The position numbers were made by a program, and so were the translations under genes. A model generated the notes under the pieces. It was not told the origin of the DNA, did no database searches, and was given only the letters and a program-made list of their open reading frames with translations. From assembly GCF_000150275.1 (NCBI RefSeq), contig NW_002060951.1:2384323-2448322 (forward strand): a stretch of DNA of 64,000 nt. The letters are read 5' to 3'. This document shows, piece by piece, positions 4,916 through 20,420 of the stretch (its first letter is position 1; the number at the start of each line of letters is the position of its first letter). Source of the stretch: Trichoplax adhaerens (lineage: Eukaryota > Animalia > Placozoa).

Positions 4916-5089
4916 TCATACAATTGTTTGACTGGAAGTCCTACGTATCTGTGGGTTATGCATAGTAGATGAATTATCCTGTTTTCTCTCTTCAGTTAAA
5001 TCATTTAAACCTTCGTAAGTACGCAGAAAAGCTTGACACAGTTTTGTAAACAGATGAAACCAATTTGTCTGTCTATCGATATCTTCATC
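4916..5089 (-). CDS. NF1: NF1 terminal coding exon
   Basis: Acceptor ttctag|gat. Translation [34 protein letters not shown]...[11 protein letters not shown] aligns to human ...DYAELIVKFLDALIDTYLPGIDEE...KIV*. Confidence 0.75.
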   Translation of the reverse strand, partial: DEDIDRQTNWFHLFTKLCQAFLRTYEGLNDLTEERKQDNSSTMHNPQIRRTSSQTIV

Positions 5090-8000
5090 CTAGAACGAAT
5101 GCAGATTTGTATAATATCATTAACTTAAAACCAAAATAGCCATAATTACTTGACTATAGTAATAATCAATCGATCATGAATTTAAAGGCTTAAAATAAAA
5201 TCACAAATCATGAAGGTCTTGAACTACCTGATCAAAAGGACCGGCGAATTTAAAATATCCGTCAAATCCAATTTCTATTAAAAACATTTTTCATGAGCAA
5301 GATATCGGTAAGAATTATCACAATGTAGGCATGAAAGAAATCACACTTAAAATACATTAAATAAAATACCGCGGAACACAAACCTTGCAAGTAATCACTA
5401 CTAATAATGTTACGATAGTCTGCTTTAGTAGTTAACATAAATTGTACAATAGACTGCACATAACCCAATATGTATAAATCTCGATTATGAGCTAAAATTG
5501 AACCAACTTTTTGATCTATGATATGGCCCCTACATAAAGAAATTCAGAGCGATGATGAATATTTTATAAATTTTATCTACTTATTCCCTGATAATATAAC
5601 TAAATACTTGACGGACTATCAATGTGATTACTAACAATATAGGAAAAGATAACGGCATAACTCTTGACGCTTCTTCGATAATTTCACTAAGGATCCTAAG
5701 CTTAGGCTCATCATGTATATAATGGAAATGTATACCCTATTTCAAAGTAATTCAATAAGCTTAATACTTCATACCCAAAAACGAAAAAGTTAACTGAAAA
5801 TTGTGCATTGTACTGATATATACTCGTATATACATTAATACATAGTATCGCAGCCTACTAACAAGAGTGCAGAGTAACAACACTTTAGTCTTTTCTGACA
5901 GCGATGGATCCAGCAATTTATTCCAAAGGAAACCACCTGAATTATCAGCGCTAAAGAGCGAAGTGGAGCTCGCATCGAGAGATTTGCGAGCAAGTTTCTG
6001 AGGTATTTCATCCACTAGTGGATATAAAGCTATAAAGACAGATTTATGCCTGATAAATTACAAATAATAACTTTAAAGTGTCGAACATTAATTATCACAA
6101 GTCAAGCGAAGTCTACCTGCAAGGTAAGCAGTGCTTTCCTCGTTTACATCATACTTGCCACATTCTTTGCTACGATTAATTAGATGGAGTAATGTATCTA
6201 ACAGCCTAATACTCTGAGCACAGGTTTCAGGAGACGGATGATGACGTCCTATTAAATAATACAGATCATTTATTAACTTCAAGATCCACAGTAGTTAATT
6301 CACTGGCTTGTATTAGCCGTACCTTTTAGCAGAATTGCAACCATGGCAAAGTGAAAGTTACTTTCGAAATTGCATTTCGTAAAGTTATCAAAGCGTCCGC
6401 ATTCCTCCAATATCGGTAAACGCATTTTTAACACAGGAATATGTAGGACCTTCGAAATAAAATCATCATCAATGAGTTATCATAAGCACATAAGAAGGAA
6501 CAGCTTAAAAATGCCACACACCTGATTTGTAAAAATCTCCTGGCTATCCAATGCATAAATACTTTCTTCTAGCAGTCCTAATCCTGAGGCATACAACGAT
6601 GATTCCCCTAACTACGAATTATCGATAAGGTAAGGCATTGATTATTAACAGCACATGTATATTTCTTAACTCGTAATGCATACTTACCTGTAGTACTGAA
6701 ATTGCGAGCCAAAATAATAGCTGGTGTAGTCTCGAGTTCTATAAATATGTAACAGTAAGGCATGTAAGCTTAAGTTAGGATCAGTACAATTAAATTGCCA
6801 TAATCACGCCATTCACATAAAATAAAAACTATGTCCTTCACTTAGGAAGCAATAACCTTATCAAGGCGGGACTGTAGCTTTTTTAGGGATATCATCGTAG
6901 CTTCCATTATAATGATATCATTGCATTTCTGCGTGACCTTAGATGTGAAATAAGCTCAAATTACTAACGAATACCACTAATCCGATGTTAGCGAGTACGT
7001 CAATAGTTATAGAATGGATATTACGGAAAGTAAAACAAAATAGGTAACTTCTAGAAATACGTACATCAACTAAAAGTTTAATTAATCTCAAAACAGTTTC
7101 ATCAGTAACATTCCTAACAAGGCATCCTATCACGACCAGCGCACGGGGCTGAAGAGCCGGATTATAGTCGTATGCAAACCTAATTTACGGAAAATAAATA
7201 AACCCAGTAAATCTCTACGCGTCCAAGAATAAGATTTATGATAGACGACAAACTTTGATGCCAATGTTATCCATGTGTCAAGCCAGCTCAAGTTAGGTAA
7301 ATCGCGATTGCAAGCGTTCATGACCTCAACCAAAAGATCTGTTATTGATTCTAACGCGTTAAGTGACATTCTTTCTTCGGACTGTGAAGAAGATGATGAC
7401 GATATAGATTTTTGAGAAGTTTTAGAAAGTTTTAGAGAAAGTAGCGAATCGGCTTTGCCTCTTGATAACCCTAATAAAGTCAATAATTATGTTAGTTCTG
7501 TTTCATAAGCACCAAAAATTCTTACTCTTAGGCTAATACCGAAAAGATGACAGTGCCTTGCAGATGACAATTCTTCTAATCGATGACGAAGTAATTCCAA
7601 TGTTTCATCTGTTTGTTGCAGATGATCATTATGTGAGAATAGATAATACAGTATGCACATCAACAACTTAAAATCTAGTAAATTTTAGTAAGTACTCACC
7701 AGTGAGGGTCAAATTTCGACAGGTGCATAACGACTGTAAAATATTTATAGCAAAACCATGTATCGTAGATCTTACAGATATTGATCCAGTGCCGACCAAG
7801 AGTACCATAACGTTGCAAATATGTGGAAAATTACTAACCACTAATTATCAATAAAAACAGACCGATTTTCACTTATTAGTACTTACATTCGCACGCTATG
7901 ACACTTTTGTAGCATTACGAATTACTAGAAACAATTTACATTTATGAAATATCCAATTGATCAACATTTAATATTCCATACGTTAAGCAAACACTAACCA

Positions 8001-20000: not shown

Positions 20001-20420
20001 AAATTAACTATTTGTAAATTCTTATAAATTTTTATAAATATTCGGTTCATTTATGCTCAAAACACTCTATGATGCATCAGCTACTATACAATATTTATGT
20101 TTTCGTAATCTGCAATCTAGTTATATTATAACTTAACAGGACTTGATTCCAACGCAGAATCATAGCGTAATAGTATTATAATGATATTCTATAAGGCATC
20201 AGTAACCGATTTAAATACGTGTATAACACGTAAAATATGCGATTTTAGGATTTAATAGACTTACCACTATCTCGCTATTAAGCAATATATTCCGTAGGGT
20301 TGTTGTTAAACCTGATATTACACGCTTTAGTTCATTACGGCTTACAGTCAGCAAGCATCGCCTATTTTGCTCAGCGCTTATTTTAGCTTGACTGTTCACC
20401 TTACCAACGTTGTAAGGCAA
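4916..20420 (-). CDS. NF1: neurofibromin (NF1) orthologue, gene span; about 45+ exons, initiator exon not located
   Basis: Multiple exon translations align collinearly to human/fly neurofibromin from N- to C-terminus. [45 protein letters not shown] aligns to [60 protein letters not shown] aligns to KFRNKLVEYLTDWVMG. LPLQPDE aligns to [42 protein letters not shown] aligns to [52 protein letters not shown] aligns to [33 protein letters not shown] aligns to [41 protein letters not shown] aligns to [44 protein letters not shown] aligns to RDIPTCKWLDQWTELAQRF. C-terminus ...TIV* aligns to ...KIV*. Confidence 0.9.
13633..13746 (-). CDS. NF1: NF1 exon ([24 protein letters not shown]...)
   Basis: Acceptor catgcag|a; donor aa|gtatga. 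Aligns to human RDLDQASMEAVVSLLAGLPLQPEEGDGVELMEAKSQLFLKY. Confidence 0.75.
13896..14108 (-). CDS. NF1: NF1 exon (...[44 protein letters not shown]...)
   Basis: Acceptor ttatag|g; donor ctaag|gtattt. Strongest single NF1 signature in the window. Confidence 0.85.
19406..19518 (-). CDS. NF1: NF1 N-terminal region exon ([38 protein letters not shown])
   Basis: Acceptor acatag|att; donor tccag|gtatga. Aligns to human ...NSASGVLFSLSCNNFNAVFSRISTRL. This is the locally GC-rich segment. Confidence 0.6.
20265..20420 (-). CDS. NF1: NF1 exon 2 equivalent
   Basis: Acceptor tttttag|ttg; donor gtg|gtaagt. Translation [52 protein letters not shown]. Confidence 0.8.

Follow-up and report, generated by a model that had tools for sequence, protein, structure and literature searches.

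A complete and intact neurofibromin (NF1) gene can be read, with a confidence close to certainty, from the minus strand of a 64-kb stretch of Trichoplax adhaerens DNA (the window; all coordinates are window positions), where it is predicted to run from an ATG at 23712 to a TGA at 4916. The gene is ordinary and already known: a predicted T. adhaerens NF1 protein, XP_002115170.1, is in GenBank and was used in an NF1 comparison (Bloomfield et al. 2015, PMC4374526) that lists one NF1 for this species. What this analysis usefully adds is the position of exon 1 and a checked map of the exons. The original prediction, made from the letters of the window alone, was of an exceptionally compact NF1 orthologue, full-length and interrupted by dozens of short introns, that occupies about 15.5 kb (4916-20420) and encodes a protein of the ~2,800-amino-acid (aa) class. 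The orthologue and its many short introns hold up; the span, the protein length and the word ‘exceptionally’ do not. From ATG to stop the gene covers 18.8 kb, reaching 23712, and the model protein has ~2,560 aa rather than ~2,800, mainly because a disordered human segment (residues 2436-2582) is almost absent. The locus and its 5′ end are as follows.

Whole NF1 coding locus: 4916..23712, minus strand; 18,797 nt, 72 exons, 71 introns, 2,560 aa
Exon 1: 23650..23712, minus strand; 63 nt, aa 1-21; found by tblastn, motif and spliced alignment
Intron 1: 20421..23649, minus strand; 3,229 nt, phase 0

The window is AT-rich throughout (GC content near 0.32), and its stop-free minus-strand segments from 4.9 to 20.4 kb translate as pieces of neurofibromin. 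The joined raw translations of these segments matched human neurofibromin chains in PDB (E=2.6e-128), and a human NF1 guide, searched by tblastn, matched the window in order between human residues 21 (at 20420) and 2702 (at 5219). We combined the guide with four full-length NF1 proteins (P0154, P0180, P0186 and P0190) into a profile. The four came from an exhaustive search with the PH-domain exon, which also returned one placozoan fragment; other homologue searching gave just short NF1 fragments or fish isoforms of up to 1,881 aa. The profile matched 56 stop-free segments, from profile position 5 to 2650, in strict order save for one stray 3-bit match. The product of the spliced gene model aligns with human neurofibromin (7r03_A) at 1,945 bits (E=0) and is ~41% identical to it overall. 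Model residues 9-617 correspond to human 8-616 in one continuous alignment, residues 632-739 to human 685-793, residues 632-2351 to human 685-2435, and the C-terminal part to human 2305-2435 and 2583-2738, so that collinear homology covers the N- and C-terminal HEAT/ARM regions as well as the central domains. The tblastn, profile and spliced-model results bear out the collinear orthologue proposed for 4916-20420, and the C terminus was also read correctly: the protein ends ...SSQTIV, with the TGA at 4918-4916.

Gene models from ab initio exon chaining were unreliable. In a first pass, intron 1 acquired two spurious exons and several in-frame introns stayed unspliced; with retrained splice matrices the result was 98 exons, many of them micro-exons of 4-10 nt; and a higher intron penalty caused real exons to be lost. 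We therefore aligned the profile to the genome with a spliced aligner that models intron phases explicitly, and one exon (exon 49) was corrected afterwards. The resulting model has 72 coding exons separated by 71 introns, all GT-AG; its coding sequence of 7,683 nt translates into 2,560 aa, is free of internal stops and frameshifts, and makes up 41% of the 18,797 nt between 23712 and 4916. Exons have a median length of 102 nt and introns a median of 94 nt, with 66 of the 71 introns inside the 60-250-nt range anticipated for most of them. Two introns are stop-free. One, of 75 nt (8308-8382, after exon 56), preserves the frame and would add 25 residues if retained, and the other, of 81 nt (19325-19405, phase 2), is open when read from the upstream exon. 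Simple chaining kept both as coding; the profile alignment removed them, since all five reference proteins lack the inserted residues. We also rejected a possible donor at 12062. Its use would lengthen the protein by 20 aa where human NF1 has alternative exon 23a, but the donor is weak (AGT|GTTATT) and the sequence unrelated to 23a.

The 5′ end is where the model departs most from what was first proposed. The N-terminal box noted at 20265-20420 is exon 2 exactly, with a TAG acceptor directly upstream and a GTAAGT donor at 20264. Because that TAG (ttttttag) abuts it, exon 2 cannot extend 5′ and an upstream exon is required. The initiator exon had been expected upstream of 20420, which is correct; it was found at 23712-23650, beyond the interval 20420-21100 suggested for the search. 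The candidates at 20500-20730, already judged not to resemble an NF1 start, contain no start exon. In a tblastn search, human residues 8-26 matched at 23688-23638. Exon 1 encodes MAIIPQCNEWVQAIIDRFDKQ (human counterpart, MAAHRPVEWVQAVVSRFDEQ), followed by a gtaaag donor, and reads ATG GCG ATC ATA CCT CAG TGT AAC GAA TGG GTT CAG GCA ATA ATC GAC CGA TTT GAT AAA CAG|gtaaag. The conserved NF1 beginning, M..(P).EWV....RF[DE].Q|LP with a short first exon, is present here; P0154, P0180 and P0190 share it, and P0186 has a more divergent form. Across all six reading frames of the whole window the NF1 start motif is present a single time, and so is the looser pattern EW...[LIVM][LIVM].RF, against 1 match in 200 shuffled windows. 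An in-frame stop lies 13 codons 5′ of the ATG. The spliced aligner picked the direct splice from exon 1 to exon 2 unprompted, and the product aligns with human 8-616 straight across this junction, which falls at Q20|L21 (c.60/61) in phase 0, that is, at the human exon 1/2 boundary. Intron 1 is by far the longest intron, and a search of it for a nested gene or RNA was negative: no open reading frame (ORF) exceeds 84 aa, and nothing in it matches a Pfam or Rfam family or a tRNA.

The central domains occur in NF1 order, with all three Pfam matches above their cut-offs, and the residues expected for catalysis can be placed to the codon.

RasGAP domain region: 11574..12813, minus strand; aa 1186-1356; Pfam PF00616, 102 bits (cut-off 28.3)
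CRAL_TRIO_2 (Sec14-like) region: 10110..10766, minus strand; aa 1513-1644; Pfam PF13716, 112 bits
NF1-type PH domain (PH_NF1) region: 9566..9790, minus strand; aa 1671-1745; Pfam PF21877, 67.6 bits
Arginine finger codon: 12683-12681, minus strand; from alignment to the human GAP-related domain (GRD)
FLR Arg codon: 11943-11941, minus strand; from alignment to the human GRD
Lys1423-equivalent codon: 11751-11749, minus strand; from alignment to the human GRD

Alignment of the GRD to human residues 1190-1528 is nearly gapless, and it pairs the arginine finger in FRGN, the FLRF motif and the lysine in GLKLASK with human R1276, R1391 and K1423. The Sec14-PH module lies directly C-terminal of the GAP domain and scored 247 bits against 3p7z and 2e2x, crystal-structure chains of human Sec14-PH. 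Both modules had been predicted between ~8 and ~12 kb; both were recovered, slightly higher, at ~13.1-11.3 kb and ~10.8-9.55 kb. The predicted layout is that of neurofibromin: N-terminal HEAT/ARM repeats, a GRD with its catalytic residues, a Sec14-like and PH module, and C-terminal HEAT/ARM repeats. By analogy with the human protein, and given the conserved catalytic residues, the product would be a Ras-specific GTPase-activating protein that turns Ras off. A complete neurofibromin with all catalytic residues is thus confirmed in a non-bilaterian animal without neurons.

Comparative support comes from one 1.6-kb contig (L001; Logan SRR30664516, genomic, 1,602 nt) of a different placozoan lineage, which aligns to window 10996-9548 and covers NF1 exons 44-50. 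These exons show 78-88% identity without gaps (~85% overall), and the introns between them 49-60% with indels (mostly ~50-55%); exons 44-48 and 50 keep every one of their splice sites. Among 284 codons, 104 carry synonymous changes only and 24 carry amino-acid-changing ones, and the differences fall 19/6/112 by codon position. Judged by this pattern of substitution, exons 44-50 are under purifying selection. The contig also supplied the correction to exon 49. The aligner had made this a 24-nt exon with its donor at 9971; L001 lacks the GT at 9970 and stays conserved as coding sequence for another 42 nt, as far as TTCTTG|GTAA, so the donor was moved to 9929.

When the 71 Trichoplax introns were projected onto human cDNA coordinates, 37 of them coincided with human NF1 exon ends in site and phase, where ~0.5 would be expected by chance. 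Of these 37 human boundaries, 29 are documented in PMC6966666 in Human Genome Variation Society (HGVS) splice-site and exon-deletion notation. Two thirds of the human NF1 intron positions (37 of 56) therefore predate the split between placozoans and bilaterians. The 3.2-kb intron 1 shares its position with the large first intron of human NF1. More speculatively, and with the odds against it, Trichoplax NF1, which keeps at least 37 of the human intron positions, might be near the ancestral animal gene structure, with its 34 extra introns ancestral and lost in vertebrates instead of gained in placozoans, intron 1 might have a conserved regulatory function, and the public model might lack exon 1 or have mis-joined small exons; should that last part be true, the present model would be a correction.

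Several points count against this gene model. Its splice junctions are predicted from homology and consensus signals (T. adhaerens RNA sequencing data exist as PRJEB23829, cited in PMC6142364). The human guide sequence and the human exon table were checked in part, against PDB alignments and one paper; in those alignments the guide was consistent with the PDB sequences. Exons 10, 14, 15 and 25 have neither a stand-alone profile match nor an intron site shared with human; exons 10, 14 and 15 fall inside the continuous human alignment, which leaves exon 25 as the least well supported, and support for exons 20 and 28 is weak too. Since exon 49 was at first given a wrong donor, other small errors of this kind may persist in the model. 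Neither AATAAA nor ATTAAA occurs in the 600 nt that follow the stop. This absence of a canonical poly(A) hexamer, and the few exons in weakly conserved segments that were placed by spliced alignment alone, are what could be said for a fragmentary or decaying NF1 pseudogene, to which we give a very slight chance: the 7.7-kb spliced frame has no stop or frameshift, 71 of 71 introns are GT-AG, every catalytic residue is kept, substitutions relative to the related placozoan are biased to the third codon position, and its exons are conserved where its introns have diverged. The fragmentary pseudogene envisaged as the alternative from the outset thus does not describe this locus, the spliced reading frame of which is intact.

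There is a negligible chance that the locus encodes a different large RasGAP, IRA-like or of the ‘MNF’ class, instead of a true NF1 orthologue. Identity to the human protein is modest, and the GAP domain is also matched by other RasGAPs; however, p120GAP, SynGAP and IQGAP match the GAP core only (28-65 bits), whereas this protein is collinear with human neurofibromin from residue 8 to 2738, has the NF1-specific PH_NF1 adjoining CRAL_TRIO_2 and shares 37 intron positions with human NF1. A small chance attaches to the start being elsewhere, with the true first exon inside 20421-23649 or further upstream and the sequence at 23712-23650 a chance match. With just 21 codons, exon 1 scores weakly on its own (3.6 bits with the profile, E=0.039 with tblastn), and an out-of-frame ATG lies 16 nt upstream of its ATG. 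Yet its motif is found once in the window, on the right strand and upstream of exon 2; its GTAAAG donor stands exactly where human exon 1 ends, in equal phase; four independent full-length NF1 proteins start alike; and the aligner passed over 3.2 kb of alternatives to reach it, among which no ORF has any family match. We accordingly retain an NF1 gene that begins at 23712.

The small size of the locus is due to introns that are short, not lost, as the gene has more of them than its human counterpart. Selective shrinkage of NF1 in particular might be suspected from 18.8 kb against ~280 kb in human (the figure of the original prediction) and from the 41% of the span that is coding, but it is quite improbable. 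The neighbouring gene TRIADDRAFT_16260 maps in four exons, all at 100% (41125-40922, 40634-40557, 40380-40180 and 39966-39769), with introns of 287, 176 and 213 nt; several other genes lie within the 64-kb window; and with 71 introns against the human 56, nothing but intron length is streamlined. The T. adhaerens genome is ~98 Mb in size, with short introns throughout. Compactness looks like a property of the genome or region, not of this gene, and ‘exceptionally compact’ is not supported. What is known of NF1 or of compaction of the Trichoplax genome is unchanged by these results, the value of which lies in annotation and in fixing the start of the gene. As the whole locus occupies 19 kb, cloning and manipulating it as a single genomic fragment would in principle be feasible, which is not so for the human gene.

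The remaining exons of the model are listed below. All exons come from the profile-guided spliced alignment; bits refer to a stand-alone profile match, human sites are human NF1 intron positions, and percentages give identity to L001.

Exon 2: 20265..20420, minus; 156 nt, aa 22-73; 31.8 bits
Exon 3: 19887..19976, minus; 90 nt, aa 74-103; downstream intron at human site
Exon 4: 19669..19728, minus; 60 nt, aa 104-123; upstream intron at human site
Exon 5: 19406..19518, minus; 113 nt, aa 124-161; downstream intron at human site
Exon 6: 19218..19324, minus; 107 nt, aa 161-197; 8.5 bits; both introns at human sites
Exon 7: 19059..19123, minus; 65 nt, aa 197-218; both introns at human sites
Exon 8: 18761..18836, minus; 76 nt, aa 219-244; 14.6 bits; both introns at human sites
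Exon 9: 18585..18688, minus; 104 nt, aa 244-278; 26.9 bits
Exon 10, provisional: 18389..18433, minus; 45 nt, aa 279-293; within continuous human alignment
Exon 11: 18089..18253, minus; 165 nt, aa 294-348; 21.8 bits; downstream intron at human site
Exon 12: 17772..17990, minus; 219 nt, aa 349-421; 19.5 bits; both introns at human sites
Exon 13: 17553..17624, minus; 72 nt, aa 422-445; 4.9 bits
Exon 14, provisional: 17412..17453, minus; 42 nt, aa 446-459; within continuous human alignment
Exon 15, provisional: 17269..17307, minus; 39 nt, aa 460-472; within continuous human alignment
Exon 16: 17107..17220, minus; 114 nt, aa 473-510; 6.2 bits; downstream intron at human site
Exon 17: 16913..17023, minus; 111 nt, aa 511-547; 4.2 bits; both introns at human sites
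Exon 18: 16766..16845, minus; 80 nt, aa 548-574; both introns at human sites
Exon 19: 16561..16687, minus; 127 nt, aa 574-616; 12.4 bits; both introns at human sites
Exon 20, weak: 16371..16427, minus; 57 nt, aa 617-635; upstream intron at human site; poorly conserved segment
Exon 21: 16107..16290, minus; 184 nt, aa 636-697; 33.1 bits; downstream intron at human site
Exon 22: 15489..15562, minus; 74 nt, aa 697-721; 8.7 bits; both introns at human sites
Exon 23: 15197..15328, minus; 132 nt, aa 722-765; part to aa 739 in alignment with human 685-793
Exon 24: 15015..15103, minus; 89 nt, aa 766-795; 19.1 bits
Exon 25, provisional: 14887..14961, minus; 75 nt, aa 795-820; spliced alignment only
Exon 26: 14708..14765, minus; 58 nt, aa 820-839; 4.2 bits
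Exon 27: 14509..14622, minus; 114 nt, aa 840-877; 24.4 bits; downstream intron at human site
Exon 28, weak: 14386..14424, minus; 39 nt, aa 878-890; upstream intron at human site
Exon 29: 14195..14298, minus; 104 nt, aa 891-925; downstream intron at human site
Exon 30: 13896..14108, minus; 213 nt, aa 925-996; 77.5 bits; both introns at human sites
Exon 31: 13633..13746, minus; 114 nt, aa 996-1034; 36.9 bits; both introns at human sites
Exon 32: 13371..13546, minus; 176 nt, aa 1034-1093; 48.0 bits; both introns at human sites
Exon 33: 13228..13298, minus; 71 nt, aa 1093-1116; 19.6 bits
Exon 34: 12966..13106, minus; 141 nt, aa 1117-1163; 34.9 bits; downstream intron at human site
Exon 35: 12796..12879, minus; 84 nt, aa 1164-1191; 5.6 bits
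Exon 36, arginine finger: 12538..12716, minus; 179 nt, aa 1192-1251; 52.6 bits
Exon 37: 12281..12373, minus; 93 nt, aa 1251-1282; 10.5 bits
Exon 38: 12122..12164, minus; 43 nt, aa 1282-1296; 8.5 bits; downstream intron at human c.4110/4111
Exon 39: 11922..12003, minus; 82 nt, aa 1297-1324; 21.4 bits
Exon 40: 11737..11813, minus; 77 nt, aa 1324-1349; 4.1 bits; downstream intron at human site
Exon 41: 11497..11594, minus; 98 nt, aa 1350-1382; 35.8 bits; both introns at human sites
Exon 42: 11263..11409, minus; 147 nt, aa 1382-1431; 18.4 bits; both introns at human sites
Exon 43: 11069..11173, minus; 105 nt, aa 1431-1466; 5.6 bits
Exon 44: 10870..10987, minus; 118 nt, aa 1466-1505; 88%, no gaps
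Exon 45: 10732..10787, minus; 56 nt, aa 1506-1524; 80%, no gaps
Exon 46: 10526..10649, minus; 124 nt, aa 1524-1565; 88%, no gaps
Exon 47: 10285..10422, minus; 138 nt, aa 1566-1611; 84%, no gaps
Exon 48: 10098..10208, minus; 111 nt, aa 1612-1648; 78%, no gaps
Exon 49: 9929..9994, minus; 66 nt, aa 1649-1670; donor corrected with L001; downstream intron at human c.5205/5206
Exon 50, PH domain: 9551..9790, minus; 240 nt, aa 1671-1750; 83.7 bits; 85%
Exon 51: 9363..9425, minus; 63 nt, aa 1751-1771; 13.1 bits
Exon 52: 9163..9280, minus; 118 nt, aa 1772-1811; 55.9 bits
Exon 53: 8951..9036, minus; 86 nt, aa 1811-1839; 26.2 bits
Exon 54: 8769..8866, minus; 98 nt, aa 1840-1872; 49.4 bits
Exon 55: 8550..8634, minus; 85 nt, aa 1872-1900; 14.3 bits
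Exon 56: 8383..8469, minus; 87 nt, aa 1901-1929; 24.6 bits; then the 75-nt in-frame stop-free intron
Exon 57: 8188..8307, minus; 120 nt, aa 1930-1969; 27.6 bits
Exon 58: 7999..8116, minus; 118 nt, aa 1970-2009; 42.3 bits
Exon 59: 7700..7840, minus; 141 nt, aa 2009-2056; 37.8 bits; downstream intron at human site
Exon 60: 7540..7608, minus; 69 nt, aa 2056-2079; 7.2 bits
Exon 61: 7254..7470, minus; 217 nt, aa 2079-2151; 46.4 bits; downstream intron at human site
Exon 62: 7065..7179, minus; 115 nt, aa 2151-2189; 37.1 bits; both introns at human sites
Exon 63: 6857..6937, minus; 81 nt, aa 2190-2216; 3.3 bits; both introns at human sites
Exon 64: 6688..6738, minus; 51 nt, aa 2217-2233; 7.3 bits
Exon 65: 6522..6611, minus; 90 nt, aa 2234-2263; 13.8 bits; downstream intron at human site
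Exon 66: 6323..6449, minus; 127 nt, aa 2264-2306; 16.3 bits; both introns at human sites
Exon 67: 6117..6248, minus; 132 nt, aa 2306-2350; 30.4 bits; both introns at human sites
Exon 68, spanning the site of the missing human segment 2436-2582: 5863..6029, minus; 167 nt, aa 2350-2405; both introns at human sites
Exon 69: 5636..5736, minus; 101 nt, aa 2406-2439; 7.6 bits; in C-terminal human alignment
Exon 70: 5384..5529, minus; 146 nt, aa 2439-2488; 12.6 bits; in C-terminal human alignment
Exon 71: 5228..5274, minus; 47 nt, aa 2488-2503; 10.5 bits; in C-terminal human alignment
Exon 72: 4916..5089, minus; 174 nt including TGA 4918-4916; protein ends ...RRTSSQTIV

Other features of the window were recorded alongside NF1. 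TRIADDRAFT_16260 (minus strand, 39769-41410) is neuferricin-like, with a cytochrome b5 domain, and its public protein, labelled partial, starts PDGQIF (41125). An ORF at 40874-41410 matches TRIADDRAFT_16260 at 100% identity, which together with the four mapped exons shows the window to be T. adhaerens DNA. This ORF runs upstream to an ATG at 41410, giving ~95 extra residues that include a hydrophobic stretch, and the entire 163-aa query is matched at 60% identity by P0108, an unnamed protein of 181 aa; the public model is probably truncated at its N terminus. On the plus strand, 41829-47484 holds pieces of an HNF1-type homeobox gene, identified by eye from a dimerisation-like N-terminal segment, MALTELQHELLTALLDSGVSKATLIQVL, and a homeodomain exon. 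Human HNF1B (17q12) and NF1 (17q11.2) lie on the same chromosome arm, and an HNF1-type gene near NF1 may be a remnant of ancient linkage. A plus-strand ORF at 32000-32539 ends in a UBA-like segment that by eye resembles the C terminus of sequestosome-1/p62. A tRNA-Ile gene with anticodon GAT (30171-30245, minus strand; 62 bits against the Rfam tRNA family) has (GTACW)n arrays on both sides.

Such arrays, with a 5-nt unit, occur at 2900-3330, 24327-26287, 30001-30496, 41572-41664, 43623-43857, 54016-55485 and 59446-61377, and the pattern GTACTGTACWGTAC, with at most 1 mismatch, has 156 matches against 0.11 expected. Most arrays with identified neighbours are intergenic. They bracket NF1 at distances of 1.6-2.0 kb past the stop codon and 0.6-2.6 kb upstream of the ATG; there is no array in 4916-20420, and one 1-mismatch match lies in intron 1, at 21293. 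In a 2025 paper (PMC12221973), a placozoan promoter or loop-anchor motif is reported to be linked to Mutator transposon ends. A 133-nt tandem unit is present in three to four copies of 98-100% identity at 60079-60613 (families D2 and D3), and a 47-nt inverted pair (TTTAAACCGCAAGGAACAGTTTTTAGCGGAAAAATACAGATAATTAT), 91% complementary and 18 kb apart, lies at 25214-25260 and 43524-43570. Both members of this pair lie close to (GTACW)n arrays, in DNA that is intergenic or intronic, and may therefore represent copies of a small mobile element.

Among the closest known systems is human neurofibromin (PDB 7r03, 7pgp and 7moc; isoform I, 2,818 aa), with which the Trichoplax protein shares domain order and end-to-end collinearity, the start motif, a C-terminal ...IV end, the arginine finger, the FLR motif and the equivalent of Lys1423. 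The human protein is longer than the 2,560 aa of Trichoplax, in which human 2436-2582 is reduced to ~20 residues, and the human gene has fewer but much longer introns (56, over ~280 kb) than the 71 of Trichoplax. The human intron after c.4772, which holds OMG, EVI2A and EVI2B, is nearest to a Trichoplax intron of 82 nt, with no room for nested genes. In Drosophila and pufferfish, full-length NF1 orthologues occupy a few tens of kb or less; introns are far less numerous in the Drosophila gene, and that of the pufferfish retains the exons of vertebrate NF1 with its introns shortened. Trichoplax NF1 is likewise small yet more intron-dense than either of those genes. The proteins AAB58975.1 from Drosophila melanogaster and AAD15839.1 from Takifugu rubripes are both listed in PMC4374526, where XP_002115170.1, from the same species as our model and presumably the same locus, is treated as the placozoan NF1 orthologue. 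The yeast proteins Ira1 and Ira2 and Dictyostelium NF1 (AxeB) are likewise large RasGAPs, and much of their length is related to NF1 (PMC4374526). Their divergence is far greater, whereas the Trichoplax protein is a clear animal-type NF1, with PH_NF1 above the Pfam threshold.

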